Origin: Escherichia phage p000v
Direction: 5' to 3' (one strand)
Sequence record: NC_055781.1
Length of the DNA: 64,000 bases
Shown here piece after piece: positions 12,012 through 56,222 of this stretch. Below the pieces are notes generated by a model. That model saw only the letters and a program-made list of their open reading frames with translations, was not told the origin of the DNA and did no database searches. A program made the position numbers and the translations under genes. Each line of letters opens with the position of its first letter. Position 1 is the stretch's first letter.

Positions 12012-12019
12012 TATTTATA
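12012..12019 (-). promoter_or_regulatory. Late promoter (TATAAATA) for gene 22
   Basis: Minus-strand TATAAATA about 30 nt upstream of gp22 ATG, overlapping the 3' end of gene 21. Confidence 0.65.
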
Positions 12020-42292: not shown

Positions 42293-42304
42293 TTTCACAA
42301 AACA

Positions 42305-42368
42305 GTTTACATAAGGATGATGGTGTGTTACTATCATCCTATCAAATAAACAACCTCAAGGAAATAAA
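42305..42368 (+). promoter_or_regulatory. Early promoter + stem-loop cassette (PeSL-like) upstream of ipI-like gene
   Basis: GTTTAC (42305-42310), TGTTACTAT -10 inside the inverted repeat AGGATGATGG...CTATCATCCT, CTATCAA leader, SD AAGGAA. Confidence 0.6.
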
Positions 42369-42680
42369 ATGAAAACGTATCAAGAGTTTATCGCAGAAGC
42401 TACTAAAGCCGATAAAAATTTTATTATTAACACCACCGGTCCGTTAGATGATGAATACGCTAATGCTATTATTAAGTCAATTTCTAATCAAGGCGTTGAA
42501 GTAACAAATTTCGAATATAAGAAAAATGATACTTATATGGTAATTAGTATCAAAAAAGGTTCAAAGGCTAAAATTAAATCTGCATTTGGTGTTATGCGAG
42601 TCGACCAAATCGATAACCACGATTTTTCACAAACAGGGGTCAAACGCCAGAATACTATTTCATCTAAAGGCATAAAATAG
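42369..42680 (+). CDS. Internal protein (IPI locus) with capsid targeting sequence
   Basis: 103 aa; N-terminus MKTYQEFIAE|A matches the T4 internal-protein CTS with IxE protease site; located next to 57B as T4 ipI. Confidence 0.7.
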   Translation: MKTYQEFIAEATKADKNFIINTTGPLDDEYANAIIKSISNQGVEVTNFEYKKNDTYMVISIKKGSKAKIKSAFGVMRVDQIDNHDFSQTGVKRQNTISSKGIK

Positions 42681-42746
42681 TTTACATGCTGATAGGACTA
42701 TGTTATAGTAGTCCTATCAAAACAAATGAGTAAATGGAGAAATAAA
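42680..42746 (+). promoter_or_regulatory. Early promoter + stem-loop cassette (PeSL-like)
   Basis: GTTTAC (42680-42685), TGTTATAGT -10 inside the inverted repeat ATAGGACTA...TAGTCCTAT, leader CTATCAAAACAA, SD GGAG. Confidence 0.6.
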
Positions 42747-42932
42747 ATGAAACGCGCTGAACTGATTCGTAATGTTGCTGTAGTAATTGCTTCAATGGCT
42801 TTTAGTTTTTCGATGTTTGTAGGATTCATTTGTGGACTACTGACAACAACTGAAAATTCTATCTCATTGGTAGTAGCATTTCTAATCGGCTTAATCGCTA
42901 TCGTTATGGATAAAATTGCAAAAGGTGAGTAA
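42747..42932 (+). CDS. Small membrane protein (two predicted TM helices)
   Basis: Start at M8 of the track ORF (SD GGAGA 7 nt upstream); 61 aa; hydrophobic segments VAVVIASMAFSFSMFVGFICGLL and ISLVVAFLIGLIAIVM. Confidence 0.55.
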   Translation: MKRAELIRNVAVVIASMAFSFSMFVGFICGLLTTTENSISLVVAFLIGLIAIVMDKIAKGE

Positions 42933-43295
42933 ATGAAATATCATGTATATGCGGATTTTGAAGCAAATCCTTCTAAAGACCCTGATTGTCGTTTGATACG
43001 CAGACCATTTGATTCGGCAGCTCAAGCCTGGGCCTGGATTAAATCTAAATCGCCTGGTTATATGTTCTTTGAAGTAGTCGATGACAATGGTACACTGCAT
43101 CCGGCCCCTACAGAAACTATTAATTTCCTTCTGTTTGCTGGTTATGAATATTATCCTTATGGCGGTATTGACGACTTATACGCTAAAGGAAAAACTGTTG
43201 AGGCTCTTCGCGAAATTTATAAAAACGCTGAAGAAAATTTTGACTGGTATCATATTGTTGATGCTCACACCTTTGAAGTGGTGGAACATTCATGA
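42933..43295 (+). CDS. Hypothetical protein
   Basis: 120 aa ORF; SD GGTGAG; tight packing with neighbours. Confidence 0.55.
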   Translation: MKYHVYADFEANPSKDPDCRLIRRPFDSAAQAWAWIKSKSPGYMFFEVVDDNGTLHPAPTETINFLLFAGYEYYPYGGIDDLYAKGKTVEALREIYKNAEENFDWYHIVDAHTFEVVEHS

Positions 43296-43582
43296 TTCTT
43301 TATGCTAAAGTATCATCCGTCAAGAACGGTTATGAAAGCGACCAACGTGCAGCTAAAGCACTAGTTGATGACTACGGTATTCTGACCCTCTTTGAAGTTG
43401 AAAAGGTTTATATTGACCGTTCATCTTCACAGGTTAAATTACTCTGGGAAGACCGTAAATTTAATAGTGTGAACTTTGATTTCTTTATTGAAACAGAAAA
43501 AGGCCCTCTTGAATATGATATTTTCAAGAATCCTTTAAATCTTGAATGTATTGAGTATACTTACATTAATATGGTACGGTGA
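43292..43582 (+). CDS. Hypothetical protein
   Basis: 96 aa ORF with ATGA overlap. Confidence 0.55.
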   Translation: MILYAKVSSVKNGYESDQRAAKALVDDYGILTLFEVEKVYIDRSSSQVKLLWEDRKFNSVNFDFFIETEKGPLEYDIFKNPLNLECIEYTYINMVR

Positions 43583-43586
43583 GTAA

Positions 43587-44102
43587 ATGAATATTCGTTT
43601 AGGCAGTACAATTACTAAGGGCTACGTAATTGATGTCACTACCTATGAAAATGATGGTGACAACTATAAAACCAAAACATTGTTTGAAGTGGAAGAACAT
43701 GAGCTCCAACAGTTTAAATATCTCTTGAAGAAATTTAAGAGCCGTCATTCTAGCACCAAAGCCGAACGCTATTGCGGTAATACACCATTCAGTGATTGCT
43801 CGCTTATTATCTACGAATATCTGGTTGAAGGACTGTTCTCAGACCAACTCCAACCGGAATTTATTAAAAAGGTCTTTGGTATCGAAGTAGACCTTGGTGA
43901 TAAATCTGAAGAAGACGAAGCCCGCGTATTCGACCTGTTCTTTGTGAAAGGCGATGAGATATCTCAAGGACTTATTGATATTCTTGGCTATGCTTCTGAA
44001 TACTATGATTACGATTTCTTGCGTGTAGTTGAACGTGTCGAATTTGCTTATATTGAAAAAGAAATTGTTTTGCCAACAGTTAAAATGGTTGATTTGCTTT
44101 AA
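43587..44102 (+). CDS. Hypothetical protein
   Basis: 171 aa ORF; SD GGTGAG identical in context to the 42933 start. Confidence 0.55.
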   Translation: MNIRLGSTITKGYVIDVTTYENDGDNYKTKTLFEVEEHELQQFKYLLKKFKSRHSSTKAERYCGNTPFSDCSLIIYEYLVEGLFSDQLQPEFIKKVFGIEVDLGDKSEEDEARVFDLFFVKGDEISQGLIDILGYASEYYDYDFLRVVERVEFAYIEKEIVLPTVKMVDLL

Positions 44103-44181
44103 GAATTATGTGTTATTATTAATTCATACCCTCTATTACCAAAGGTGCTCTAAAGTGCCTTTCATAATAGAAAGTTATTAA

Positions 44182-44253
44182 GGCCCTGTAGCTCAATGGG
44201 AGAGCTGTCAGCTCATAACTGATAGGTAGCTGGATCGAAACCAGCCAGGGCCA
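44182..44253 (+). tRNA. tRNA with anticodon CAU (Met, or Ile if C34 is modified)
   Basis: Cloverleaf folded by hand: acceptor GGCCCTG/CAGGGCC (7 bp), D-stem GCTC/GAGC, anticodon stem GTCAG/CTGAT with loop CTCATAA (anticodon CAT at 44214-44216), 5-nt variable loop, T-stem GCTGG/CCAGC with loop ATCGAAA, discriminator A. No encoded CCA. Confidence 0.8.
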
Positions 44254-44294
44254 TATTTTGGGAACATAAATACTCTTAGAAATAGGAGATATTT

Positions 44295-44963
44295 ATGTTC
44301 CATTACACTTATAAAATAACAAATAAAATTAATAATAAAATCTATATAGGCGCTCATTCTACCGAAAATTTAGATGATGGATATATGGGTTCTGGTAAAT
44401 TATTAAAAAGAGCCCAAGACAAGTATGGTATAGAAAATTTTAATAAAGAAATTTTAGAATTCTTTGACACTAAAGAGCAGATGTTTGAAGCCGAGAAAAA
44501 TATCGTAAACGAAGAATTTTTGAATCGTTCTGACGTATATAATTTAAAACTTGGTGGCGAAGGTGGTTGGGACCATTTAAATACTTACGAATTTAATTAT
44601 AAAAAGAAAGAAGCCTCTATTAAAGGAGCCAAAGCTTTTAAAGAGAGATTTGATTCTGATGAAGTGCTTCAAGAAAAATATCGTAAAATGGGTTCAGAGA
44701 AATTAAAGCATCTGTGGACTTTACCTGAATACAGAGAAAAATTCTCTAGCACTAAGTCGTTTTTAAATAAAAATCATACTTCCGAAACTATTGCTAAAAT
44801 GAAAGATACCCACGCCAGGAACAAACACCAACAAGGCGAGAAAAATTCCCAGTTTGGTACTATGTGGATTCATTCATTAGAAGAAAAGAAATCTAAGAAA
44901 ATTAAGAAAACCGATCCTATTCCGGAAGGTTGGATTAAAGGCTATAAACTAAAATTTAAGTGA
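44295..44963 (+). mobile_element. GIY-YIG homing endonuclease gene, SegB-like (adjacent to tRNA)
   Basis: 222 aa (T4 SegB 221 aa); N-terminal GIY-YIG module YTYKITNKINNKIYIGAHST; basic C-terminal DNA-binding region; located beside the tRNA gene as T4 segB. Confidence 0.75.
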
Positions 44964-44970
44964 GGAAAAT

Positions 44971-45316
44971 ATGAAAGGTAATATTTATCTGGTAGTTCAT
45001 GATTTAACGTTTTATTTTAACGAACAGGATACAGTTATTTCGCGACCGGTTGATTAATTCATTATATCAACACGCTGATTACGTTTATTTCCAAAATGAA
45101 TTTGGCCATTGGAAGTTCCTTAAAAATCGTTCCGGGTTAACTAGTTTTGAATACTTTGACCGTAAAGACCTTTTAAACGAAATTCCATTGCAACATCGGT
45201 TCCAGAAACGCGAATCATTATATTATTGCCGTCATATACCAAACGCAGAATGTGCCAATGAAGCGATTAATCTATGGCGTAGACGTAGAGAACAAATTGA
45301 TGATATGCCAAAATAA
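44971..45316 (+). pseudogene. Possible frameshift-split gene (28-codon ATG ORF followed by an 88-codon ORF lacking an ATG start)
   Basis: ATG 44971 with SD GAGGAAAAT opens a 28-codon ORF ending at 45057; the 45050-45316 track ORF is in another frame and has only a TTG start with no internal Met until the last residues. Confidence 0.3.
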
Positions 45317-45484
45317 GAAGCCGGGTCGCTACCGGCAAGACGTCGGACTGATGTTCCCTGGGTAAGGACTGGTCTTAATAAATCTTTACGATTTGTTAAT
45401 ATCCCCTTACATCACAGCAGAAACGGCGCGCAGAATTATCGATTCGAGGAAATATCTTTGCCGTAAGCCGAGTAGCGTTTTTGA

Positions 45485-45576
45485 CGGAACGTTCGGATAT
45501 GGTCGAGATATGGCCTTTTAAAAATATTGAGTAGCGTCAACTGCTTAATAACCGGGTTCGAATCCCGGCGTTTCGT
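45485..45576 (+). ncRNA. tRNA-like element (canonical T-arm and acceptor pairing; D/anticodon arms do not fold convincingly)
   Basis: CCGGG-TTCGAAT-CCCGG T-arm followed by CGTTTCG, which can pair with CGGAACG about 85 nt upstream; could be a degenerate tRNA or a small stable RNA as in the T4 tRNA region. Confidence 0.25.
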
Positions 45577-45617
45577 ACAAACACTTACCTAGTAGGTGGA
45601 AACCCCGACAAGGTATA

Positions 45618-45648
45618 AAGCCCCTTCCGAAAGGTTGGGGCTTTTTTG
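45618..45648 (+). terminator. Rho-independent terminator
   Basis: AAGCCCC-TTCCGAAAGGTT-GGGGCTT hairpin followed by TTTTTTG; near-identical copy at about 61579-61608. Confidence 0.7.
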
Positions 45649-45656
45649 TATAAATA
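45649..45656 (+). promoter_or_regulatory. Late promoter (TATAAATA)
   Basis: Plus-strand TATAAATA about 36 nt upstream of ATG 45692, immediately after the terminator. Confidence 0.6.
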
Positions 45657-45691
45657 TAGTAAACAATAAACCTACTTTCTAAGGACCATCG

Positions 45692-46318
45692 ATGTATACT
45701 TTTAATGAATTTTTAGCCGAAACGGAAGTAATCACCGAAGCCGGTGTACGTATGACAAAAGAGAAATGGCAAGCTGCTTACGATGCTATTTCTGGTACAA
45801 AAACTAGTACAGAGTTTTTCAAAAACGTTCAAGCCATGTACGGTATCGACACTTCCAGCCAAAAAGAATATTACAGAGCTTCTAAAGCATTCAAAGATAT
45901 TGTTAGTGGTGGTGTTTCTGCTAAATCTGGTTCGCCTAAAGTAAAACCTGCTCCTACCATTCCTAAACCTGCGACCCCTAAAGCAATAGCAAAACCTGAG
46001 CCTAAGCCTGAAGTAAAAGCAACTCCTAAAGCTCCTGCTCTTAAGTTTGATACTTCTAGCCTGGAAAAAAAATATAGACAACTATCTTCGCTTGTTCGTG
46101 ATATTGAATCCGATACATCTTCACTCGTTCGTGAATTCAATAGTCTTCGTAATGGCCAACATATCAACAACCTTGATACCCCAGACCTTTATCGTCTTTA
46201 TTTGACTATCGAAGGTTTGAAGTATACTCAACCACTTCATGATGAGATTAAAGAAAAACTTCGACAAGCAGGTCGTTTGGCTGCTGACGCTGCTCAGTAT
46301 GCAAAAACTCGTAAGTAA
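45692..46318 (+). CDS. Late-expressed protein with CTS-like N-terminus (candidate capsid internal protein) and Pro/Lys-rich linker
   Basis: 208 aa; N-terminus MYTFNEFLAE|T resembles the internal-protein CTS (LxE site at residues 8-10); central PKVKPAPTIPKPATPKAIAKPEPKPEVKATPKAP; late promoter upstream. Confidence 0.55.
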   Translation: MYTFNEFLAETEVITEAGVRMTKEKWQAAYDAISGTKTSTEFFKNVQAMYGIDTSSQKEYYRASKAFKDIVSGGVSAKSGSPKVKPAPTIPKPATPKAIAKPEPKPEVKATPKAPALKFDTSSLEKKYRQLSSLVRDIESDTSSLVREFNSLRNGQHINNLDTPDLYRLYLTIEGLKYTQPLHDEIKEKLRQAGRLAADAAQYAKTRK

Positions 46319-46320
46319 AG

Positions 46321-46342
46321 AATGGGGACTTCGGTCCCCATT
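46321..46342 (+). terminator. Stem-loop (possible terminator or RNA processing site)
   Basis: AATGGGGA-CTTCGG-TCCCCATT hairpin after the 45692 gene; no strong T-run. Confidence 0.35.
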
Positions 46343-46370
46343 AGGGGGTCTATAACTTACTGAAAAAGTT

Positions 46371-46429
46371 GTTTACTTCTTCCCTAGATGTGTTACTATA
46401 GAACCTATCAACAACATGAGGAAAATGTT
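46371..46429 (+). promoter_or_regulatory. Early promoter + leader cassette (PeSL-like)
   Basis: GTTTAC (46371-46376), TGTTACTAT -10, CTATCAACAA leader, SD GAGGA. Confidence 0.55.
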
Positions 46430-46933
46430 ATGAGTCTTTACACTGAACTGAATAAAAAATCTGAAGAATCTGCTGAAACTATTTTTAAAAACGTGCAAAA
46501 GCGTATTTTAGAAAAGATGTATAACGCTGCATCTAAAGGTGAAAAATCTTGCCAGTTTCCGATGAGGTGTTCTTCTGATTTATGCGCAAATACTATTGAA
46601 TGGTTGGAAAGTGAAGGTCTTACAGTAGAGAAAAACCCGGCGACTTCTATTGACAGTGAATCATATATTAGTATTTCTTGGGATAAATCAAGGGTAGAAG
46701 AGAAAGATGGTGATTGGGTTGTAGATGTTAAAACTTCTGATGGTGGACGTTCTGTTGAAGTTTCAGCTGTAGTTAAAGGTACCCACGAACAAAGGACTTG
46801 GGGCTGGGGTGGTGAAGAAAAAGAAATTGTTCTTAGTGTGATTGCCAGGTCAACTAGTAATAAAATTGCACAAAGCATCATTGACGCTGCAATTGCTGAA
46901 GCAGAAAAAATTTGCAAAATTAAAAATAAATGA
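46430..46933 (+). CDS. Hypothetical protein
   Basis: Start at M15 of the track ORF (SD GAGGA); 167 aa. Confidence 0.55.
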   Translation: MSLYTELNKKSEESAETIFKNVQKRILEKMYNAASKGEKSCQFPMRCSSDLCANTIEWLESEGLTVEKNPATSIDSESYISISWDKSRVEEKDGDWVVDVKTSDGGRSVEVSAVVKGTHEQRTWGWGGEEKEIVLSVIARSTSNKIAQSIIDAAIAEAEKICKIKNK

Positions 46934-46992
46934 TGTACAATCACCAAGGATGGTGATACTATAGACTTATCAACTACAGAGGAGTAAACAAA

Positions 46993-47157
46993 ATGACTAC
47001 TTTAATTATTTGGTTCGATGAAAATGAAGAAACATACTGTGTGAATATTGGTGAAAGCCCAATGCCTGAATTTGAATCCTCAGATAAAAACTCTGTTGTA
47101 TCTTGGGCTGAAGGTTATAAAGCAGCTAAAGGTGACGTTGAAATAATTTACATCTAA
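46993..47157 (+). CDS. Small hypothetical protein (54 aa), not in ORF track
   Basis: ATG 46993 preceded by the duplicated 45-nt leader with SD GAGGAG; MTTLIIWFDENEETYCVNIG...; stop TAA 47155-47157. Confidence 0.5.
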   Translation: MTTLIIWFDENEETYCVNIGESPMPEFESSDKNSVVSWAEGYKAAKGDVEIIYI

Positions 47158-47203
47158 GTAAGTTTATGTTATAGTAGTTCTATCAAAACAAGAGGAAAAC
47201 AAA
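47147..47203 (+). promoter_or_regulatory. Decayed early promoter cassette (TTTACA-17-TGtTATAGT) + leader
   Basis: TTTACA at 47147-47152, 17-nt spacer, TATAGT preceded by TG; leader CTATCAAAACAAGAGGAAAACAAA-ATG; upstream IR arm missing compared with the full cassettes. Confidence 0.5.
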
Positions 47204-47431
47204 ATGGCTAAAGTTAGTATTGATGTCGTTGATTATGAATACACAGAAGAAGTTATTCGCAACCGTCACCCTGAAGTTCGTATCGATTCAGTACAAGATT
47301 CCAAGTTCTGGACAACTGAGCTTAATCTGAGTGGTCCTTATGAAGCTGTTAAGAAGTTCATGGTTGAAGAATACTGCGAAGGCATGCACCCCGAAGACGC
47401 CAAGTTTTATGTCAATTTGATTAAAAAATAA
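47204..47431 (+). CDS. Hypothetical protein
   Basis: 75 aa ORF with cassette leader and SD GAGGA. Confidence 0.55.
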   Translation: MAKVSIDVVDYEYTEEVIRNRHPEVRIDSVQDSKFWTTELNLSGPYEAVKKFMVEEYCEGMHPEDAKFYVNLIKK

Positions 47432-47432
47432 T

Positions 47433-47501
47433 TTACAAACTCTTGAGAGCAGAGTATAATGCTCTCGTTGGATAATAAACCACCAATTGAAAGGTAATAA
47501 T
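47433..47501 (+). promoter_or_regulatory. Sigma70-type promoter (TTTACA-17-TATAAT) with inverted repeat flanking the -10
   Basis: TTTACA, 17-nt spacer, TATAAT; GAGAGCA...TGCTCTC inverted repeat around the -10; SD GAAAGG before ATG 47502. Confidence 0.55.
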
Positions 47502-48095
47502 ATGAACACACTGAAGAAACTTGTTGAATTCATCCGCACTAAACTGGGTACTGCTATGGCTAAAAATCTGACTGTAGAAGAACAGTATAACGCAGCTGCA
47601 GATAAGTTGATTACCCAAATCAAAGAACTAAAAACGGCTTCTGTTAAATCTATTAACGAAGAAAAACGTATTCGCGAACTTGTTAATGAAAAGAACAAGC
47701 AAGCCGCTTCTAAGGAACGTGAAATTCGTAAGCTCCTGGCTGAAGGACAAGATGTTACCATGCATGCTAAGCTTGGTCTTCTGTATCGTCGAACTGCCGA
47801 ACAACTTAATACAAAAGCTGACGGTTATGCCGCTATGCGAATTGAAATTGCTCGTAAGGTGGTTGAACTTGATGATGCTCGTCAGAACCTGGCAATCAAA
47901 CTCGAATACATTCGTGAAACTCGAGCAGCCAATGCCCTTGGTATCTCTACGGCTGATGATGTGATTGAAATTGCTGCACTGACTAAGGTTGATATCGAAG
48001 ACACTCTGACTCGTGTCGAAACATTCAATGGCACTCCAGCCGGTGTCGAAACCACTTCTGCTGATGTACAAGAATATATTAACTCTTTGAAATAA
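47502..48095 (+). CDS. PspA/IM30-like coiled-coil protein
   Basis: Start at M6 of the track ORF; 197 aa, almost entirely helical with heptad-like charge pattern ([33 protein letters not shown]...[14 protein letters not shown]) resembling phage-shock protein A. Confidence 0.45.
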
Positions 48096-48103
48096 AATAA
48101 TAC

Positions 48104-48126
48104 GGAGGACTCCGGTCCTCCTTTTG
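48104..48126 (+). terminator. Rho-independent terminator
   Basis: GGAGGAC-TCCG-GTCCTCC hairpin followed by TTTTGG. Confidence 0.6.
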
Positions 48127-48144
48127 GATAATAAAGGAGTTAAC

Positions 48145-48747
48145 ATGCGAAACCAAAATAATGATATTGACTCAATGTTCGAAGAGTTCCGAGATAAGGT
48201 AAATCCACCTACGTCTTTAGTTGATTCATTACGATATGTTGCAACTGGGCGTAAATGGTACTGGTCGTCTTCTTATGAGACCACCGAGAAAACAGCTAGC
48301 CATAGCAGAAAATCTTTATTGGCCCCGGGTATTATGATTCATGATATCGGAGCTATTGCTAAACTAGTTGCAGACCATGATATTAGATTCACTGATTTCG
48401 TTGCTCCTACGTGGTCTGTTTGTTGTTTAAACACTGAATGGGAATATATCAGCGAACGCTCTGAAGATTATTATGGTTTTAGAGATAAGCTTCTGAGGTC
48501 TAATATGTTTTATATCGATACAGAAGTTCTAGTCGATAATAAAAAATATTACTTTACGTTAATCATCGATTCTGAAACTATGTATGAAGGCAAGCCTTTG
48601 CTTAAAAGAGTTGATGCTTTAAGTGCTATTGATGCGCTTTATGAAACTATGGTTGTTAGTCCTAATTTCACTAACAATTTAATCCTTGAGCAATTTATTA
48701 TGGAATGTAGAGAATATGTCAAAGCCAACCCTATACATGCCAAGTAA
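48145..48747 (+). CDS. Hypothetical protein with C-terminal QFIMECR motif
   Basis: Start at M8 of the track ORF (SD AAAGGAG); 200 aa; C-terminus ...LILEQFIMECREYVKANPIHAK shares a motif with 48716, 51356 and 52349. Confidence 0.55.
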   Translation: MRNQNNDIDSMFEEFRDKVNPPTSLVDSLRYVATGRKWYWSSSYETTEKTASHSRKSLLAPGIMIHDIGAIAKLVADHDIRFTDFVAPTWSVCCLNTEWEYISERSEDYYGFRDKLLRSNMFYIDTEVLVDNKKYYFTLIIDSETMYEGKPLLKRVDALSAIDALYETMVVSPNFTNNLILEQFIMECREYVKANPIHAK

Positions 48748-49108
48748 GCCCTGGGCGTATGAATACAAGCGTAAATTAATCCCAAATGAAGTACTATTTG
48801 GCCCTATTTTAGCTTTAGCATTTTTAATCTTTATGATTATAGGAGCTGTTTTAGATTCTAGTGAAGTTATATCGTCTGATGCAGCATTTTCATTAATGTT
48901 CGTCGCACCACTTATTATACCGTTTTTATTAATGCCTATTAACTGGATGGGATATTGGTACCAAGGACGTCATCACAGAGCCCGATTAAGAGAATGGAAA
49001 GTTCAGTGCGCAAAAGCCCAAGCTCAGTATGATGAAGCTGTTAAAAAGTATGAATATGAAGAAGCTATGGAATTCGTTAAGGAAATAAGATGCAAAAGCC
49101 TTAACTGA
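48716..49108 (+). CDS. Membrane protein (two TM helices) with C-terminal EFVKEIRCK tail
   Basis: Start uncertain (ATG 48716 or 48737; track ORF begins with TTG at 48686); TM segments ILALAFLIFMIIGAVL and FSLMFVAPLIIPFLLMPI; helical C-terminal tail. Confidence 0.5.
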   Translation: MSKPTLYMPSKPWAYEYKRKLIPNEVLFGPILALAFLIFMIIGAVLDSSEVISSDAAFSLMFVAPLIIPFLLMPINWMGYWYQGRHHRARLREWKVQCAKAQAQYDEAVKKYEYEEAMEFVKEIRCKSLN

Positions 49109-49206
49109 ATTTATGCTGTTTACGCTTCTCAAATGATTAGTTATAATGAACTCCTAGCTAAACGTGAAAATGAAACAATCGAAAACTTTATTAAGGAATG
49201 TAGAAA

Positions 49207-49512
49207 ATGAGTAAGATTATTGAAATTAAAGTACCAGAGTTTAATGATGCCAAATCCGCTTCAGATGCAATTTATAAACTTCTGAATCAAGCTGAACGTA
49301 TCGAAGAAGAAGCAACAAAGATCGCAGACCAATACGCTGTATCGTTTTCTGTAGGTGATTATGGTAGCGGTCGTACTTATTATCCTAAGGGTGAAATCGT
49401 ATCCCAGTGGATGAAAAATGAAATTGAAAATAATGGTGGCGACGTTAAGCGTGAAGGTAATGGTTACGTTATTACTGAAGGTGCTTGGGTTTCGTCTTCT
49501 GCGTTGTGCTAA
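49207..49512 (+). CDS. Small protein, member A of tandem triplicated family (C-terminal GAWVSSSALC)
   Basis: 101 aa; shares helical N-terminus and C-terminal G-W-V-S/A-S-S-x-x-C motif with 49522 and 49804. Confidence 0.6.
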   Translation: MSKIIEIKVPEFNDAKSASDAIYKLLNQAERIEEEATKIADQYAVSFSVGDYGSGRTYYPKGEIVSQWMKNEIENNGGDVKREGNGYVITEGAWVSSSALC

Positions 49513-49521
49513 GGAATCATT

Positions 49522-49794
49522 ATGTCTAAAGAACAAACCGAACTGGCTGAAGCCGTAGCAAAAATCTATGCAGCTATTGAGGCTGCCAAAGAAATTGCTA
49601 ATAAACAAAACACAACATTCGACTTGTATCCAGCTTATGGCATGGGTGGAACCTATCATTCACCAGGACATCTTAAAGCCGATCTTGAACGTTGTACAAA
49701 AAACGGCTATGCTGAATGGGCTGACGTTTACCAATACGACTACAACTTGAGCCTTGAAGATGGCGGTTGGGTTGCATCTTCTCACACTTGTTAA
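49522..49794 (+). CDS. Small protein, member B of tandem triplicated family (C-terminal GGWVASSHTC)
   Basis: 90 aa; paralogue of 49207 and 49804. Confidence 0.6.
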   Translation: MSKEQTELAEAVAKIYAAIEAAKEIANKQNTTFDLYPAYGMGGTYHSPGHLKADLERCTKNGYAEWADVYQYDYNLSLEDGGWVASSHTC

Positions 49795-49803
49795 GGAAAT
49801 CAT

Positions 49804-50001
49804 ATGTCTCGTGAATTAGATTGTGCTGTACGTACAGCAGTAGCTGCCCTAGAAAACCTGTTCCAGATTGCAACCGAAGAGCGTGAAGAAGTTACATTGT
49901 GGATTGAAGATAACGCAGGTCTGAATCTCCAGGACGCAATCTCGTTATCAAATAATAGTATTACTGTTCAAGGCTGGGTATCATCTAGTTATTCTTGCTA
50001 A
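49804..50001 (+). CDS. Small protein, member C of tandem triplicated family (C-terminal QGWVSSSYSC)
   Basis: 65 aa; paralogue of 49207 and 49522. Confidence 0.6.
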   Translation: MSRELDCAVRTAVAALENLFQIATEEREEVTLWIEDNAGLNLQDAISLSNNSITVQGWVSSSYSC

Positions 50002-50005
50002 AACA

Positions 50006-50063
50006 GTTTACAACAAGATAGGGCTATGTTATAGTAGTCCTATCAAATTAAATGGAGTCTACA
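50006..50063 (+). promoter_or_regulatory. Early promoter + stem-loop cassette (PeSL-like)
   Basis: GTTTAC (50006-50011), TGTTATAGT inside the inverted repeat ATAGGGCTA...TAGTCCTAT, leader CTATCAAATTAAA, SD GGAG. Confidence 0.6.
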
Positions 50064-50303
50064 ATGATTTATTATGAAAGTATCGGAACCGAAGTAGTTG
50101 CTAAAACTATTACTCGTGAAAAGTTTGCAAAGATATTCGATATGCGTTATAAAAAATCTGAACACAAAGGCATCCGATTCGAAGATGCGCACTGTACAAT
50201 TTGCCCTTATAATGAAGACATAAACGGTACAATCGTTCCATTGGTAGAGGCTTCACATGATGACCTCTGGGATGAATATAATATCGCATGTCGCGAAATT
50301 TAA
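50064..50303 (+). CDS. Hypothetical protein
   Basis: Start at M5 of the track ORF (SD GGAG 6 nt upstream); 79 aa. Confidence 0.5.
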   Translation: MIYYESIGTEVVAKTITREKFAKIFDMRYKKSEHKGIRFEDAHCTICPYNEDINGTIVPLVEASHDDLWDEYNIACREI

Positions 50304-50328
50304 GTAATCTAAATTCGAGGAAATTATT

Positions 50329-51285
50329 ATGATGTTAGTTATTGGTTCTCGTGCACTTCACTATCACGGCCTTATTGATTCTAGCGCTATCAAAAATAGT
50401 GATTGGGACTTTATTGCGGACCAAGGTTCTTGGAATGTATTCAAAAATCAAATGATGGGCGTATATGTTCACCAAGATAACCCTGATGTCCAAGTTTTCA
50501 AATGCTTCCATAATGGACGCGAAACTCATTTTGAAGCATACATTGTTCCGGCAATCACTAATGTCCGTGAATTAGTCGGTGAACTCACTCCTGAAGATTT
50601 CACGTCTTCTTATGACCTTTTAAAATACGCCAAGAAAAATTTGACTAAAGACCGTTTGAACGGGTTTTACTGGGCAACTCCTGAGATGTGTCTTGCAATT
50701 AAGATGTCTCATCGTTTCAAGAAAAATAATCCATTCTTTTTAAAGACTATGAACCATATTCAGTATCTTCGTGGTAAAGGTGTTACACTGAACGATGAAC
50801 TTACTGAAATTATGCTGAAACGCCAGAAAGAAACCTTGAATTATGCTCACCCGGTTCTTGACACTTCTAAAAGCGCATTCTTTAAAGATGACATCTACAC
50901 ATACGATCATGATACTATTCACGAAGCCATTGCACTAACAGACCGTCCAGCGTATACATTTTATATGAAAGATGGTTCTGAAGTCATGACCTCACGCGAG
51001 AAGTTCGAATCATTACCGGAAATGGTCAAATTGGCCGGCGTATACGAAGAATCATGTGTACTAGCATTAGAACGTTCTCAGATTCCTAATAACTTTGAAA
51101 TCCATCCACGTGATAGTTTTATGATAGCTCTTGAAAAGGTCTGTACTTCAATCACGTCAGGCTGGTTCCGTGAGTATGCCTGGGAGAACTATGGCAAAGT
51201 AGTAAGTATGTATCAAAGCTTAGGACATGACGATTATGTCAAACGTTTCAAACAAAATTTCCATATGGTAAAACCTTTCAAATAA
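50329..51285 (+). CDS. Hypothetical protein with Pol-beta-type nucleotidyltransferase-like motif
   Basis: 318 aa; N-terminal LVIGSRALHYHGL...NSDWDFIAD (GS...SDxDF pattern similar to the 63423 protein); rest alpha-helical. Confidence 0.4.
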   Translation: MMLVIGSRALHYHGLIDSSAIKNSDWDFIADQGSWNVFKNQMMGVYVHQDNPDVQVFKCFHNGRETHFEAYIVPAITNVRELVGELTPEDFTSSYDLLKYAKKNLTKDRLNGFYWATPEMCLAIKMSHRFKKNNPFFLKTMNHIQYLRGKGVTLNDELTEIMLKRQKETLNYAHPVLDTSKSAFFKDDIYTYDHDTIHEAIALTDRPAYTFYMKDGSEVMTSREKFESLPEMVKLAGVYEESCVLALERSQIPNNFEIHPRDSFMIALEKVCTSITSGWFREYAWENYGKVVSMYQSLGHDDYVKRFKQNFHMVKPFK

Positions 51286-51297
51286 CTTCACAAAACT

Positions 51298-51355
51298 GTT
51301 TACAACAAGATAGGACTATGTTATAGTAGTCCTATTAAAACACGAGGAGAATATT
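51298..51355 (+). promoter_or_regulatory. Early promoter + stem-loop cassette (PeSL-like)
   Basis: GTTTAC (51298-51303), TGTTATAGT inside the inverted repeat ATAGGACTA...TAGTCCTAT, SD GAGGAG. Confidence 0.6.
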
Positions 51356-51661
51356 ATGAAATTAGGCGAAACCAACCGAATTGGTCTTTTAACAATATTT
51401 GCATCACCTTTTTACGCAGCTCTTTCTGTTGCAGTATTACAAAAGGCTTACGATATGGATGGTGTTCCTGGTTGTATATTCTTATCACCATTTTTGTTAT
51501 TCGTTGGAGCACTGCTATTATACGCCACGACTAGTTTCGACCATAATGTCTGGGTTAATTATAAATGTAAATTGTCTGAAGAAGAACACGCAGAAGCTCG
51601 TAAAAAAGCTATTGAATCTACCAATCTAGAAAATTTCATTAAAGAATGTCGAGGAAAATAA
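51356..51661 (+). CDS. Membrane protein with C-terminal ENFIKECR tail
   Basis: 101 aa; two hydrophobic segments (IGLLTIFASPFYAALSVAVL, CIFLSPFLLFVGALLLYA); C-terminus ...NLENFIKECRGK. Confidence 0.55.
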   Translation: MKLGETNRIGLLTIFASPFYAALSVAVLQKAYDMDGVPGCIFLSPFLLFVGALLLYATTSFDHNVWVNYKCKLSEEEHAEARKKAIESTNLENFIKECRGK

Positions 51662-51662
51662 T

Positions 51663-52349
51663 ATGAATAGTTCTAAAGTGTTTAATAGTCAAGCTCGTGC
51701 AGTAGGTGGTTTCGCTGGCCGTATCAGTAATGATAAAATTAAAAATGAGCCTATGTTCTTCAACTGCGACCTGAAGTTTGCTTTTGATAACGGCGGTCCT
51801 ATCACTCGTTCTTTCATCATGAATCTGCCTGATGACTGGAACACTAATGAAGTAGTATTCGATTCACGTGTTCATATGCTTATGCCTGGCTGGTATCCTG
51901 CTATTCCTGGATACCACCATGACGATGTTCCTCGCCCTGATATTCCAGTCGGCCAACACTTTATTACTGCAGGACAACCTGACTATGATAACCCTCGTTA
52001 CCATTCTGAACATATTCTTGGTCTTGTTAACGCTGACGTGTGTCCTACTCATTTTGCAACAGGAACTGCAGAGTTCAGTCAGATTCCTGATGGCGAACTT
52101 ATCTATCGCCAGTGGCACAAAGAAGTCCTCGAAAAAATCGAAAAAGGCGAACTAGAGAAATGGGAAGCTCCAGACCGTACTCTTCTTCAGTTTGATTGGC
52201 AAACATGGCACACTGGTTCTCGTGCAATTAGTAATGGATGGCGTTGGTTCGGGCGTGTATCTCGTAATACAGACCGAGTTAAAAAGATTACCAATGAAAT
52301 TCGTGTCAACGCTCAAGTTTATCTAGAATTCCCTATGGAAGGCTGGTAA
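51663..52349 (+). CDS. Hypothetical protein
   Basis: 228 aa ORF tightly packed after 51356; His/Asp-rich segment (YHHDDVPRPD...HSEH). Confidence 0.5.
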   Translation: MNSSKVFNSQARAVGGFAGRISNDKIKNEPMFFNCDLKFAFDNGGPITRSFIMNLPDDWNTNEVVFDSRVHMLMPGWYPAIPGYHHDDVPRPDIPVGQHFITAGQPDYDNPRYHSEHILGLVNADVCPTHFATGTAEFSQIPDGELIYRQWHKEVLEKIEKGELEKWEAPDRTLLQFDWQTWHTGSRAISNGWRWFGRVSRNTDRVKKITNEIRVNAQVYLEFPMEGW

Positions 52350-52840
52350 TGATTAACAAAACATATTGGTCTAATATTGACGACGGCAATGAAGGTATTT
52401 CGTACTATTCAGTGGATTGGACAGGATGTCCATCCTACTTAGTGAAACGTATTTGCCAAGAATTTAAAATCGACCAGCCAGCAGGTATTATCGTGAACAG
52501 ATACATTAATGGATATCAACCTATCGATGAAGTAATACGAACAACTCAAGCTGATCTTGAAAAGTTTTTCAATAAGTGCCAATGGATAACAGGATGGATT
52601 ATATTTGTACCGTCGGTATGGTTTTTTAGTACTAAGGTGAGTTCTTTCGGTTTTGTTGATATTATTGCTATCTTATTAGCATCTACTATCGTAAGTATAA
52701 TTGGTGGTATAATTGGTGGAGGTACTATAGGCATCATTATTAATCTTGTTAAAAGTAGTTTACAGGAACGTAAAGACAAGATAAAGGCCAAGAATAACGA
52801 AGTTGAACGTTTTATTACCGAATGCAGGAATTTGAGATGA
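52349..52840 (+). CDS. Membrane protein with C-terminal ERFITECR tail
   Basis: 163 aa; soluble N-domain, two TM segments (WIIFVPSVWFF, FVDIIAILLASTIVSIIGGIIGGGTIGIIINLV), C-terminus ...NNEVERFITECRNLR. Confidence 0.55.
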   Translation: MINKTYWSNIDDGNEGISYYSVDWTGCPSYLVKRICQEFKIDQPAGIIVNRYINGYQPIDEVIRTTQADLEKFFNKCQWITGWIIFVPSVWFFSTKVSSFGFVDIIAILLASTIVSIIGGIIGGGTIGIIINLVKSSLQERKDKIKAKNNEVERFITECRNLR

Positions 52841-53073
52841 GTATAGCAATTTACATTAAATCAGAATCATGCGATAGTTATCTGTACACGTATGATAAAG
52901 ATGTGTCAGAAGAAAAAATCAAAGACGATCTTAATATGGACCTTGATATGTTCTGTCCTATTGCAGATTACAAACTTGCGGTCTCTAATAGTGAAAGTCC
53001 ATCTAAAGAAACGCGTATTGAAGAATTTATGTCCGAATTAATGGCCAAATCATGGGACCGAGATGATGAGTAA
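52837..53073 (+). CDS. Hypothetical protein
   Basis: Start at M6 of the track ORF (ATGA overlap with 52349 stop); 78 aa. Confidence 0.5.
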   Translation: MSIAIYIKSESCDSYLYTYDKDVSEEKIKDDLNMDLDMFCPIADYKLAVSNSESPSKETRIEEFMSELMAKSWDRDDE

Positions 53074-53521
53074 GAAAAATAAAGTGAAAGAACTATCAGC
53101 CGGTATTATCTTCATGACAAAAGATAAAGAATTATTCATGGGACGTGTAACTGGTTCTCGTCCTAAAGGTTCTTTAGCTCATCGGTGGGATATTCCTAAA
53201 GGACGTGTCGAGCCCGGTGAATCGCCTATTGAAGCTGCTATTCGTGAATGCGAAGAAGAAACTGGGTTTACACAATATGACCCTGCCTTCCTGAAAGACC
53301 TAGGTGAACATCATTACTCAGACAATAAGAATATTCATCTGTTCCTATATACCATCCCTGTAGAGCACGAGCAATTCAGAAACAGTGTTTGTAATTCCTA
53401 TCATACATTCCAAGACGGACGACAGATTCCTGAATTTGATGCATTCGCTTTAATTAAACCTTCTCAATGGGAATATGTGATGGGCAAATCATTATATAAG
53501 GTGCTCACTACCATCCTATAA
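53063..53521 (+). CDS. nudE: Nudix hydrolase (NudE / e.1)
   Basis: 152 aa; Nudix box GRVEPGESPIEAAIRECEEETGF; immediately upstream of lysozyme e as in T4. Confidence 0.88.
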   Translation: MMSKKNKVKELSAGIIFMTKDKELFMGRVTGSRPKGSLAHRWDIPKGRVEPGESPIEAAIRECEEETGFTQYDPAFLKDLGEHHYSDNKNIHLFLYTIPVEHEQFRNSVCNSYHTFQDGRQIPEFDAFALIKPSQWEYVMGKSLYKVLTTIL

Positions 53522-53555
53522 GTAATAAATACCTCCTATAAACGTGGGAGGTATT

Positions 53556-54044
53556 ATGAATATATTTGAAATGCTTCGTAATGACGAAGGTCTTAGACTG
53601 ACTTTATACAAAGACACCGAAGGCTTTTGGACGATTGGCATAGGCCATTTGGTAACAAAGAACCCGTCTTTAGCCGTAGCTAAAGCTGAACTTGACAGAA
53701 TGATCGGTCGTAAATGCAACGGCACAATTACCCTTGATGAGGCTGAAAAGCTATTTAATGAAGACGTTGATAAAGCCGTTCGTGGAATCTTGGGTAATGC
53801 TAAACTTAAACCAGTGTATGATTCTTTAGACGCGGTTCGTCGATGTGCATTAGTCAATATGGTCTTCCAAATGGGTGTAGCAGGCGTCGCAGGTTTTACT
53901 AATTCTCTTCGTATGCTTCAACAGAAACGTTGGGATGAAGCGGCAGTAAATCTAGCCCAATCTAAATGGTATCGTCAGACACCTAATCGCGCGAAACGCG
54001 TAATCTCAACATTTAAAACAGGAACTTGGAAAGCGTATATATGA
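53556..54044 (+). CDS. e: Endolysin, T4 lysozyme (gene e)
   Basis: Start at M5 of the track ORF (SD GGGAGG); 162 aa; [32 protein letters not shown]... essentially T4 lysozyme with catalytic Glu11/Asp20/Thr26 context. Confidence 0.95.
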
Positions 54045-54322
54045 AAACATATAGTGAATTTTTATCAGAATCTATTCTTAACGAAGCTACCGACACATTT
54101 GCAACTAAGCTAGGTGCAGCTTTGGTTGAAGCGGAAAGTCTATTAGCACGTATTTCTGAACTTGCCAGTAAGATAGATACTCGCAAATTTGAACGTACCA
54201 GTGATATCGTTAAGCTTGAAGCCTTGTTGCGTATGTGCGATAAACCGGAAGAAATCGCTAAGAACGGCTCGTTAATGAAACAACGTCTTGAAAAATATAT
54301 TTCAGGCGCTTCAGAAAAATAG
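54041..54322 (+). CDS. Small protein with CTS-like N-terminus (candidate internal protein)
   Basis: Start at M6 of the track ORF, ATGA overlap with the e stop; 93 aa; N-terminus [10 protein letters not shown]|S (LxE site). Confidence 0.55.
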
Positions 54323-54323
54323 T

Positions 54324-54380
54324 GTTTACTTCCTCCAAGGACTTTGATACTATACATTCATCAACTACTTGGAGGAAATT
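54324..54380 (+). promoter_or_regulatory. Early promoter + stem-loop cassette (PeSL-like) upstream of denV
   Basis: GTTTAC (54324-54329), TGATACTAT -10; inverted repeat TTCCTCCAAG...CTTGGAGGAA pairs the region after -35 with the SD. Confidence 0.6.
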
Positions 54381-54794
54381 ATGACTCGTATCAATTTAAC
54401 ACTTGTTTCTGAACTGACCGACCAACATCTTATGGCTGAGTATCGTGAATTACCACGCGTATTTGGTGCAGTCCGTAAACATGTTCAAAATGGTAAACGT
54501 GTAAAGGATTTTAAAATCTCTCCAACATTTATCTTAGGCACAGGTCACGTAACATTCTTTTACGACAAACTTGAATTTTTACGTTTACGTCAAATCGAGC
54601 TAATCGTGGAATGTTTAAAACGCGGTTTCAAAATCAAGGACACGACAGTCCAGGATATTTCCGACATTCCTGTAGAATTTCGTAATAATTATGTCCCGTC
54701 CGAAGCGTCCATTGCGATAAGTCAAGCACGCTTAGATGAAAAAATTGCTCAACGTCCGACTTGGTACAAATACTATGGTAAATCAATTTACTAA
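54381..54794 (+). CDS. denV: Endonuclease V, pyrimidine dimer DNA glycosylase (DenV)
   Basis: Start at M5 of the track ORF; 137 aa; [34 protein letters not shown]... near-identical in character to T4 endo V. Confidence 0.93.
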
Positions 54795-54806
54795 GGAAAA
54801 ACGAAA

Positions 54807-55061
54807 ATGTATCAAGAATTTACCGCTGAAGCAGATGCCAAAGGCCCAAAGTTTAAAGTTAAAGCTTTCATTGGTGATGCGGAAGACTTTGGCTCATTAA
54901 AATGTAATGGGTATTCTTTCTTAGGTGGCGATGGTAAAGAAATCAACACCTATGCAAAACGTAGTGAAATTGCTTATGTTGTAGCAAGTCCTAAAGTAGA
55001 TGTTGACGATATTGAATACGATTTTAACAACTTCGGAATTATTTCTGGCGGTAAAGCTTAA
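54807..55061 (+). CDS. Hypothetical protein with degenerate CTS-like N-terminus
   Basis: 84 aa; N-terminus MYQEFTAEA resembles MKTYQEFIAEA lacking two residues. Confidence 0.5.
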   Translation: MYQEFTAEADAKGPKFKVKAFIGDAEDFGSLKCNGYSFLGGDGKEINTYAKRSEIAYVVASPKVDVDDIEYDFNNFGIISGGKA

Positions 55062-55065
55062 AATT

Positions 55066-55125
55066 GTTTACGCTTAAGTATTAATATGGTATAATTACTC
55101 TATCAAAACAAACAAGGAAACAAAA
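55066..55125 (+). promoter_or_regulatory. Early promoter + leader cassette (PeSL-like)
   Basis: GTTTAC (55066-55071), TGGTATAAT extended -10, leader CTATCAAAACAAACAAGGAAACAAAA. Confidence 0.6.
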
Positions 55126-55440
55126 ATGAAAACGTATAAAGAATTTATTGCAGAATCCGCCAACCAACGCGTTGAAGGTGGTTATATTTGGATTGAACAA
55201 GTTGAGCCACCGAGCCGCACTTCTACAGGTAAATGGAAAATTACCGTTGATGGTCCTGGTGGTAAACGTAGGACTCTTAAAGAAATTAACGGGTACTATG
55301 AAGAAGCTCTTTCGGATGCAGGAACTTACATGATGCAAATCATGATTAAAAACCCTGAAAACCGTTTTGCAGCTAAAGTCTTCCGCCGCATCGGTAATAA
55401 ACTTTATGATGCATACTCTAAAAACTTCCCTAAAGAATAA
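55126..55440 (+). CDS. Internal protein (IPII-like) with capsid targeting sequence
   Basis: 104 aa; N-terminus MKTYKEFIAE|S; basic; size close to T4 IPII (100 aa). Confidence 0.65.
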   Translation: MKTYKEFIAESANQRVEGGYIWIEQVEPPSRTSTGKWKITVDGPGGKRRTLKEINGYYEEALSDAGTYMMQIMIKNPENRFAAKVFRRIGNKLYDAYSKNFPKE

Positions 55441-55465
55441 CATAAATTAAAACAATAGGAACAAA

Positions 55466-56044
55466 ATGAAAACTTATAAAGAATTTATCGCCGAGGCCTT
55501 TGCAGGAAAAGCTCAAGGCATTAATAAGGACGAGTGGAATTATCGTGGCGGAAACGGCTTTGACCCTAAAACTGCTCCACTTGAACGATATCTAGCCACA
55601 AAAGCTTCTGATTTTAAAGCATTCGCTTGGGAAGGACTTCGCTGGCGTAACGATCTAAATATTGAAGTTGACGGACTCAAATTTGCTCATATTGAAGATG
55701 TTGTTGCTAGTAACTTAGATGCAGCTTTTGTTAAAGCCGACAGCGACCTTCGTCGCTGGAATTTAAAACTGTTCTCTAAACAAAAAGGCCCGAAGTTTGT
55801 GCCTAAAGCAGGTAAATGGGTTATTGATAATAAATTGGCTAAAGCTGTCAACTACGCTGGGCTTGAATTTGCCAAGCATAAATCATCATGGAAAGGTCTT
55901 GATGCAATGACTTTCCGTAAAGAATTTGCCGATGTTATGGCTAAAGGCGGCTTTAAGGCAGAAATAGATACCTCTAAAGGTACGTTTAAAGACGCTAATG
56001 TTCAGTACGCTTACGCCGTTGCTAATGCAGCCCGTGGTAATTAA
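55466..56044 (+). CDS. Internal protein (IPIII-like) with capsid targeting sequence
   Basis: 192 aa; N-terminus MKTYKEFIAE|A; size close to T4 IPIII (194 aa). Confidence 0.65.
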   Translation: MKTYKEFIAEAFAGKAQGINKDEWNYRGGNGFDPKTAPLERYLATKASDFKAFAWEGLRWRNDLNIEVDGLKFAHIEDVVASNLDAAFVKADSDLRRWNLKLFSKQKGPKFVPKAGKWVIDNKLAKAVNYAGLEFAKHKSSWKGLDAMTFRKEFADVMAKGGFKAEIDTSKGTFKDANVQYAYAVANAARGN

Positions 56045-56222
56045 TAAGGCCTAAGTATAGGCCTATTTACATTTAAATAAAATGGGAACAACCTGGACCT
56101 CATGATTCTATGAGGGATTCCCGCCAACCTGTAATAAGGTCGAGCCCAAGTGCGGTAATGGGTAAATACAGAAATGGACAATTCATGCGCCACGGAATGG
56201 CCCAAACCTTAAGAGAAATAAT

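Follow-up and report, generated by a model that had tools for sequence, protein, structure and literature searches.

Introduction

The internal proteins (IPs, or Ips) found in T-even phages are loaded into the prohead core, trimmed by the gp21 protease and injected into the host together with the DNA. The three internal proteins of T4, IPI to IPIII (Ip1 to Ip3), and a wider T-even set running from Ip4 to Ip10 and beyond were reportedly described by Repoila et al. in 1994 and by Mullaney and Black in 1996. Here we analyse six open reading frames (ORFs A to F) of Escherichia phage p000v that open with a leader peptide of this family. They lie within a stretch of 64,000 nucleotides of the sequence record NC_055781.1, hereafter the window, in which they had been singled out by an earlier note made from the sequence alone.

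Injected proteins that carry a capsid targeting sequence (CTS) are a T-even feature known since 1994, and their functional description was extended in 2025 (PMC12373910). The CTS was defined in T4 IPIII, where residues 1 to 10 are enough for packaging; targeting depends on positions 4 and 7, processing on positions 8 and 10, and gp21 cuts after L/I-X-E (PMC9026906). At least 10 Ips have been reported. GmrSD type IV restriction enzymes are inhibited by Ip1, Ip2 and Ip3, each acting on a different one; for ip4-10, a panel of 15 GmrSD systems showed no reproducible inhibition (Silas et al. 2025, PMC12373910). IPIII is required on ECOR17 and is active in trans without its CTS (PMC9391042). Shuffling at PeSL elements, which are early promoters set within a stem-loop, has already been tied to the IP loci (Comeau 2014, PMC4122927).

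Results

Six open reading frames begin with a capsid targeting sequence of the T4 type

All six ORFs are read from the + strand and open with a T4-type CTS (Table 1). A six-frame regular-expression scan of the 64 kb for [YF]xEF[ILVMT]xE returned exactly six sites, each at the start of one of these ORFs. The chance expectation, taken as the mean of 200 first-order Markov simulations, was 0.175 matches anywhere and 0.01 adjoining a Met. The scan thus recovers the six ORFs and N-termini listed in the earlier note and only these. The codons of the leader vary synonymously between copies (ACG/ACA/ACT, ATC/ATT, GCA/GCC/GCT, GAA/GAG). It is therefore the peptide that is conserved, and not merely a stretch of DNA.

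ORFs A, B, C, E and F fit all four of the positions defined in T4, with an aromatic residue at position 4 (Tyr in A, C, E and F, Phe in B), Phe at position 7, Ile or Leu at position 8 and Glu at position 10. D retains the Y-x-E-F spacing, and its leader is two residues shorter through the loss of the first ATG. The putative cleavage motifs are IAE in A, E and F, LAE followed by ITE16 in B, and LSE followed by LNE15 in C. The second, downstream site of B and C resembles that of T4 IPI, which is cut after ITE19. The earlier note had credited every copy with an [LI/T]-x-E at the end of the leader. This stands for A, B, C, E and F, but the T-A-E of D is not [LI]-x-E, and D has no other [LIV]xE anywhere in the protein. 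The mature forms of A, B, E and F have predicted isoelectric points (pI) of 9.5-9.75 and that of C has a pI of 8.1, compared to 9.0-9.65 for T4 IPI*, IPII* and IPIII*. Together with the 91% identity of F to T4 IPIII over 192 residues and the presence of the gp21 and gp22 genes in the window, the T4-defined residues kept in five leaders support the earlier identification of the shared N-terminus as the T4 capsid targeting sequence.

The window comes from a Mosigvirus, RB69/JS09-like, of the Tevenvirinae, and many sequenced coliphages are ~95-98% identical to it. Its gene order is that of T4: 1, 57A, 57B, [A], trna.4-.2, tRNA, ..., e.6, e.5, ..., nudE, e, [C], denV, [D][E][F], vs.8. A lies after 57B, as ipI does in T4, and C to F occupy the interval from e to vs.8, the place of ipIII and ipII in T4. 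B is located outside both of these hypervariable loci, between the tRNA region and the e.6-e.8 block. The minus strand of the window carries the genes for gp20, gp67, gp68, gp21, gp22, gp23 and gp24. Both the prohead protease expected to remove the leader (gp21) and the scaffolding core protein thought to bind the CTS (gp22) are thus present; gp22 contains 15 [LI]xE sites, and the maturation site of gp23, LTE↓AE, is retained. With the gp21, gp22 and gp23 genes in the window, the machinery that would read the leader is therefore encoded beside the cargo genes.

We consider it very probable that ORFs A to F are the ip genes of this T-even-type phage, a set assembled from cassettes whose products would be packaged through the CTS, cleaved by gp21, injected, and active against host defences. 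During prohead assembly, the leader of ~10 residues on each product would bind the gp22-based scaffolding core, and the protein would thereby be enclosed in the head. gp21 would then cut after the Glu of [LI]-x-E, that is after residue 10 in A, E and F, with a probable second cut after ITE16 in B and after LNE15 in C. Cleavage would leave small, mostly basic mature proteins that stay with the packaged DNA and are injected with it. In the cell, they would most likely act as first-response anti-defence factors.

Table 1. Coordinates of the ip-type ORFs, the genes of the prohead machinery and the promoter elements in the window. Predicted cuts are marked by arrows.
Feature	Position	Strand	Length (aa)	N-terminus or motif	Remarks
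ORF A	42369-42680	+	103	MKTYQEFIAE	classical ipI locus after 57B; predicted cut IAE↓A after residue 10; mature 93 aa, pI 9.5
ORF B	45692-46318	+	208	MYTFNEFLAE↓TEVITE↓AG	CTS-tagged late protein; phrog_2280; mature pI 9.75
ORF C	54041-54322	+	93	CTS-type start, then ↓SILNE↓A	second predicted cut after LNE15
ORF D	54801-55061 (ATG at 54807)	+	84	MYQEFTAE	IP family member, leader damaged in this phage; acidic body, pI 4.9; no [LIV]xE
ORF E	55126-55440	+	104	MKTYKEFIAE	predicted cut IAE↓S; mature 94 aa, pI 9.6
ORF F	55466-56044	+	192	MKTYKEFIAE	predicted cut IAE↓A; mature 182 aa, pI 9.6; terminator hairpin 56047-56064
gp21, prohead core serine protease	12015-12656	-			Pfam Peptidase_S77, E 2.9e-107; expected to remove the leader
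gp22, scaffolding core protein	11169-11981	-			Pfam T4_CASP, E 2.3e-89; thought to be the structure that binds the CTS
PeSL-like element directly upstream of A	42299-42366	+		GTTTACA..17..TACTAT	early promoter inside inverted repeat; repeat family D1/D2
Second PeSL-like copy, after A	42674-42741	+			repeat family D1/D2
PeSL-like early promoter element upstream of E	55058-55111	+		TTTACG..17..TATAAT	repeat and promoter search
Further PeSL-like copies	47140-47207, 50000-50067, 51292-51359	+			repeat search
Terminator-like hairpin upstream of B	45619-45642	+			followed by a T run; hairpin search
Late promoter driving B	45649-45656	+		TATAAATA	promoter search

Family assignment and copy number

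On homology, five of the six ORFs belong to internal-protein families that are already known. F is the IPIII/Ip3 orthologue (phrog_5341, E 3.9e-117). A falls in the Ip7 family, sharing 66% identity with the 'Ip7 internal head protein' of T2 (phrog_2667, E 1.9e-38), and C in the Ip5 family, with 48% identity to the T2 'Ip5 internal head protein' (phrog_3499, E 1.2e-46); the records of LF82-8 and IME340 likewise label C an internal head protein. E is identified as Ip10 by the annotation of JS09, 'Ip10; similar to CAA84455 Ip10 [phage Pol]', and by 72% identity to 'Ip10 [Shigella phage SP18]'. A protein-database search with E returned three relatives only. Homology to a named Ip was thus found for A, C, E and F and not for B, and the family of D is called "internal head protein" in several records. 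The start codon of C and the stop codon of the lysozyme gene e share nucleotides (ATGA, 54041-54044), which suggests translational coupling of this internal protein to e.

The earlier note had described the bodies of these proteins as unrelated to each other, and this was confirmed. No pairwise similarity was detected by BLASTP among the six mature bodies, and profile-profile probabilities were all <3%; the latter method also found the mature parts to be unrelated to T4 IPI, T4 IPII and T2 IpIV. Paralogy between A and D, both of which were placed in phrog_2667, was considered and rejected on the basis of BLASTP and of profile-profile comparison of their mature regions (probability 0.2%). Their common phrog_2667 match is probably due to the leader. 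No significant Pfam domain was detected in any of the six ORFs, and PDB sequence searches with the six returned nothing below E 0.1.

Over the homologous regions there are three CTS genes in T4, as the earlier note had it, and three in T2, compared to five plus a remnant in JS09, seven in ChristianSchoenbein and six in the window. The set is therefore larger than that of T4, as had been claimed, but it is not unusual, since the Mosigvirus relatives sampled carry five to seven; such a number is normal for Mosigvirus. In the Mosigvirus relative GADS24, the remaining 113 kb contained no further CTS ORF. A DNA-pattern scan of IMG/VR for the strict form MKTYxEF[ILMF]xE gave at least 120 stretches. 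Among the matches listed, complete T4-like genomes of 160-177 kb have two to five such leaders, compared to four in the window, and the 153 ORFs fall into 58 unrelated body clusters.

ORF D carries a damaged leader

In five relatives the D gene begins ATG AAA ATG TAT CAA GAA TTT ATC, encoding MKMYQEFI[AI]E, whereas the window reads ACG AAA ATG TAT ... ACC. With ACG for ATG and ACC for ATC, the first start codon of D has therefore been lost and Ile8 is now Thr. Homologues in phage 212 and in Salmonella phage Melville start canonically, with MKTYQEFITE and MKTYEEFINE. It is quite conceivable, if somewhat short of probable, that D is decaying and has ceased to be packaged or processed in this phage, so that the working set would be five and not all six ORFs would be functional cargo. 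Besides the two substitutions, the lack of an [LIV]xE site and the acidic pI point in this direction, as does the condition of the same gene elsewhere, with a 135-nt internal deletion in JS09 and only a C-terminal remnant in other relatives. However, the ORF is intact over 84 codons behind a good ribosome-binding region of the AGGA type, and its product keeps the Tyr/Phe spacing and the Glu of the leader. Moreover, Thr also stands at position 8 of T4 IPI, which is nevertheless packaged, being cut further downstream. The D protein may still be made; its packaging and processing are doubtful.

ORF B and a putative third internal-protein locus

The T4 late promoter consensus was sought upstream of every copy and was found for B only. 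As stated in the earlier note, B lies behind a late promoter: a perfect TATAAATA is located 43 nt upstream, just past a terminator-like hairpin. Rfam detected nothing upstream of B except tRNA-Met. B belongs to phrog_2280, of 'unknown function', and is a 'hypothetical protein' in the protein database. It is 'hypothetical' in all 39 annotated records among the 40 listed of 137 matching phage records. In the records sampled, B is thus the only one of the six ORFs in a family never yet labelled internal protein.

Orthologues of B were compared from Dhakavirus JS98, Winklervirus CBH8, Tegunavirus fHe-Yen9-01, Karamvirus PG7, Kanagawavirus Q7622 and Marfavirus Marfa, which makes seven genera with the window copy. 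All begin with M-x-x-[FY]-x-[ED]-[FI]-[LI]-x-E (MKTYNEFLNE in JS98), such that an aromatic residue at position 4, Phe or Ile at 7, Leu or Ile at 8 and Glu at 10 are conserved across the seven genera. A second [LIV]xE just ahead of the conserved body AG(V/E)RMTK is present in four of the six orthologues (five of seven with the window copy). The promoter is conserved as well, TATAAATA or a one-mismatch variant being found ~40 nt upstream of all six, preceded by a hairpin in five of them (six of seven including the window copy). The orthologues are located between the tRNA genes and e.8; in the window, B is ~3 kb beyond the ipI locus. In ChristianSchoenbein, homology to the window ends inside the B late promoter, and the B site is occupied by two other CTS genes, MKSYAEFLTE.. 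(154 aa) and MKTYAEFLTE.. (187 aa), both annotated hypothetical. Of the two, the 187-aa protein is distantly homologous to B (hhalign probability 86%, E 5e-6).

Behind its leader, B has two helical domains, one N-terminal (~19-73) and one C-terminal (120-208), joined by a disordered Pro/Lys/Ala linker (74-112). The AlphaFold2 model (pLDDT 70) shows a disordered leader and two helical domains separated by a disordered linker. Structure prediction of the mature domains had been suggested in the earlier note; run on B, it yielded no structural match from which a function could be assigned. Foldseek found no match to the model in the PDB (best E 1.7), and no function can therefore be read from the fold.

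The literature consulted describes "two Ip loci" (PMC12373910). B marks a putative third one, between the tRNA genes and e.8, which may be unrecorded, an older mention being possible. More broadly, we advance with some reserve, and at slightly less than even confidence, the proposal that T-even-type phages have a third, unrecognised IP locus between the tRNA cluster and e.8. It would hold CTS-tagged, two-domain proteins of the B family expressed from a late promoter (phrog_2280 and distant paralogues, whose Pro/Lys/Ala linker is histone-H1-like), be conserved in at least seven genera, and it would have been missed because it is absent from T4 and T2. In the same proposal, the leader would be an address tag across the T4 superfamily, cyanomyovirus-like marine phages included, and would apparently load into the capsid there recognisable anti-restriction enzymes of the S-adenosylmethionine (SAM) lyase family and of an SNF2-plus-DNA-methylase type.

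Leaders of this form were also encountered on proteins with enzyme domains. In uncultivated viral contigs, at L115:111-938, L028:887-1417 and six other IMG/VR loci, MKTYxEF[IL]xE opens a protein with a SAM lyase family domain (PF23780, E 3.6e-14), and one of these contigs has the cyanomyovirus-like neighbours nrdB, transaldolase and 2OG-Fe(II) oxygenase. The leader-bearing SAM lyase may be delivered from the capsid. L108:3379-5889 (- strand) and L109 encode an 836-aa SNF2-helicase and N6/N4 DNA-methylase protein that starts MKTYIEFLKE and recalls packaged anti-restriction enzymes like P1 DarB.

B could instead be a structural component of the head core or a DNA-condensing one, a basic, histone-H1-like protein that organises the packaged DNA or the scaffold and is not an injected effector. 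We regard this as unlikely. It would account for a dedicated late gene conserved in seven genera, unlike the fast-swapping IPs, and for the long, disordered, Pro/Lys/Ala-rich linker of a protein of pI 9.75, and the fold search gave no match pointing to an enzyme or an inhibitor. However, B is absent from T4, T2 and some Mosigviruses, its site in ChristianSchoenbein holds the two other CTS genes, one of them a distant homologue, and the C-terminal domain of the Q7622 orthologue has been replaced. Absent from some relatives and replaced in others, B is thus dispensable and, like other IPs, polymorphic.

Homology breaks within the leader

Comparison with close relatives locates the borders of the exchanged segments. 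The window is 98% homologous to JS09 and ChristianSchoenbein up to 42391 (nt 23 of ORF A) and once more from 42675, 5 nt before the A stop; both phages have a T4-type IpI in place of A. Similarly, 97% homology to JS09 breaks off at 55488 (the 23rd nt of ORF F) and is regained at 56064, just past the terminator hairpin, with an IpII cassette in place of F in JS09. These breaks at the leader fit cassette shuffling.

Six repeat copies of ~55-68 nt in the window contain a T4-early-type promoter (GTTTACA..17..TATAGT or TATAAT) within a stem-loop. Several of these PeSL-like copies coincide with points at which homology to relatives breaks; A is flanked by two copies, and one lies ahead of E. Repeated stem-loop early promoters are thus present at the borders of variable segments, and the copy at 42674 is the point at which homology resumes after A. 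The same layout of promoter plus inverted repeat is found upstream of T4 ipI, ipII and ipIII. In cassette exchange, the leader, often together with a PeSL early-promoter element, would provide the left-hand homology and a PeSL element or a terminator the right-hand homology, such that unrelated bodies are swapped between phages.

The e-C-denV-D-E-F array (e-Ip5-denV-D-Ip10-IPIII) is found also in Tequatrovirus IME340 (L138, 435-2438), from which it follows that the cassettes move between genera. The D protein is up to 96% identical in Tequatrovirus phage 132 (L136) and 92% identical in IME340. The identity of D and the shared array indicate a recent exchange of the IP locus between genera.

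That the shared N-terminus is a DNA-level element only (a strong translation-initiation region, as the earlier note had envisaged among the outcomes that would overturn its proposal, or a linker for recombination) and takes no part in protein targeting is highly improbable: the leader and the Shine-Dalgarno region do form a direct-repeat family (D3) at A, D, E and F, homology breaks inside the leader, and the leader probably also serves as a recombination linker, yet its amino acids are conserved through synonymous changes, the orthologues of B have other codons and other residues at positions 2, 3, 5 and 9 while keeping positions 4, 7, 8 and 10, and the same 10 residues are experimentally sufficient for packaging in T4 IPIII (PMC9026906), the protein to which F is 91% identical.

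Other features of the window

A gene for a GIY-YIG homing endonuclease, SegB/SegE-like (Pfam E 1.3e-6), is located at 44295-44963 (+), directly after a tRNA-Met (44182-44253). JS09 and ChristianSchoenbein have a tRNA-Arg at this site, and homology to them is interrupted from 44259 to 44952. At 49207-50001 (+), three tandem small ORFs of 101, 90 and 65 aa each end in G-W-V-[SA]-S-S-x-x-C and are paralogue-like; they are named RB69ORF139c/137c/136c in the JS09 annotation.

Discussion

The reading of ORFs A to F as packaged, injected internal proteins extends to their function. The earlier note had proposed that this phage may inject a larger set of effectors, anti-restriction proteins for example, which agrees with the published view of at least 10 Ips, with Ip1-3 directed against distinct GmrSD enzymes (PMC12373910). 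F would most likely inhibit a GmrSD-type type IV restriction enzyme like T4 Ip3. Such an activity is likely because of the identity of F to Ip3, and is likely for F only. For A, C, E and B, family context suggests an anti-defence role.

Several observations weigh against this reading of the six ORFs. D has no start codon at leader position 1, carries Thr8, lacks an [LIV]xE and is acidic. A canonical late promoter is present only at B; early-type promoters precede A and E, and C, D and F lack a promoter of their own. The late supply of A and of C to F must therefore come from persistence of the proteins or from read-through. For A, C and E, the null result of the ip4-10 panel leaves an anti-GmrSD role unproven. 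Literature searches turned up neither virion proteomics nor N-terminal data on this phage or any Mosigvirus, no proteomic data on a B orthologue, and no usable virion mass spectrometry of JS98. Finally, arabinose-type sugar-nucleotide enzymes are encoded next to the polymerase gene of a relative: in Mosigvirus GADS24 (L014, 27750-30638), genes for arabinose-5-phosphate isomerase, an NTP-transferase and phosphoheptose isomerase lie beside the DNA polymerase gene. We take these genes to be consistent with arabinosyl-hydroxymethylcytosine DNA of the RB69 type. If the DNA of p000v is modified in this way, the restriction enzymes that matter here may not be the ones studied with T4.

Against restriction, injected internal proteins are a phage's first line, and they help to set its host range. 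Knowledge of the Ip content of a therapeutic or model phage helps to predict its range among wild E. coli strains. The set described here comprises an Ip3 orthologue, Ip5, Ip7 and Ip10, a damaged copy and an unlabelled family. To the known system, the present analysis adds the family of each copy, the degradation of the D leader, breakpoints at the level of the leader, and a case for B and its neighbours as an unannotated IP family at a third locus. The B-family genes and the two CTS genes of ChristianSchoenbein merit the label of candidate internal proteins and a place in anti-defence screens.

Comparison with known systems

The Dar proteins of phage P1 are, like the Ips, head-packaged anti-restriction proteins that are injected with the DNA (PMC12810830, PMC9024508). 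They are unrelated to the Ips in sequence and in packaging hierarchy, and they are not known to have such a leader or a gp21-type L/I-x-E rule. Closer to the Ips is Alt, the packaged ADP-ribosyltransferase of T4, which likewise enters the prohead core, undergoes trimming by gp21 and is injected (PMC9026906). Alt, however, is a large enzyme with a different, shorter propeptide. The Mosigvirus Alt (that of GADS24) starts MSEQLNE.., and its gene is located outside the window.

The PeSL cassettes (Arbiol 2010, PMC2839356; Comeau 2014, PMC4122927) correspond to what is observed here in that six stem-loop early promoters edge variable segments. Unlike in those cassettes, the left-hand homology at the IP genes includes the coding leader, with the breakpoints at nt 23 of the ORFs.

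The closest correspondence is with the T-even Ips themselves. The 10-residue leader, the L/I-x-E motif and the two hypervariable loci (after 57B, and from e to vs.8) are the same, the mature proteins are small and basic with unrelated bodies, and F, A, C and E are orthologous to Ip3, Ip7, Ip5 and Ip10, respectively. Unlike T4, this Mosigvirus has six copies in place of three and carries denV inside the array (e-C-denV-D-E-F). It further departs from T4 in the damaged leader of D and in B, which stands at the putative third locus under its own late promoter.

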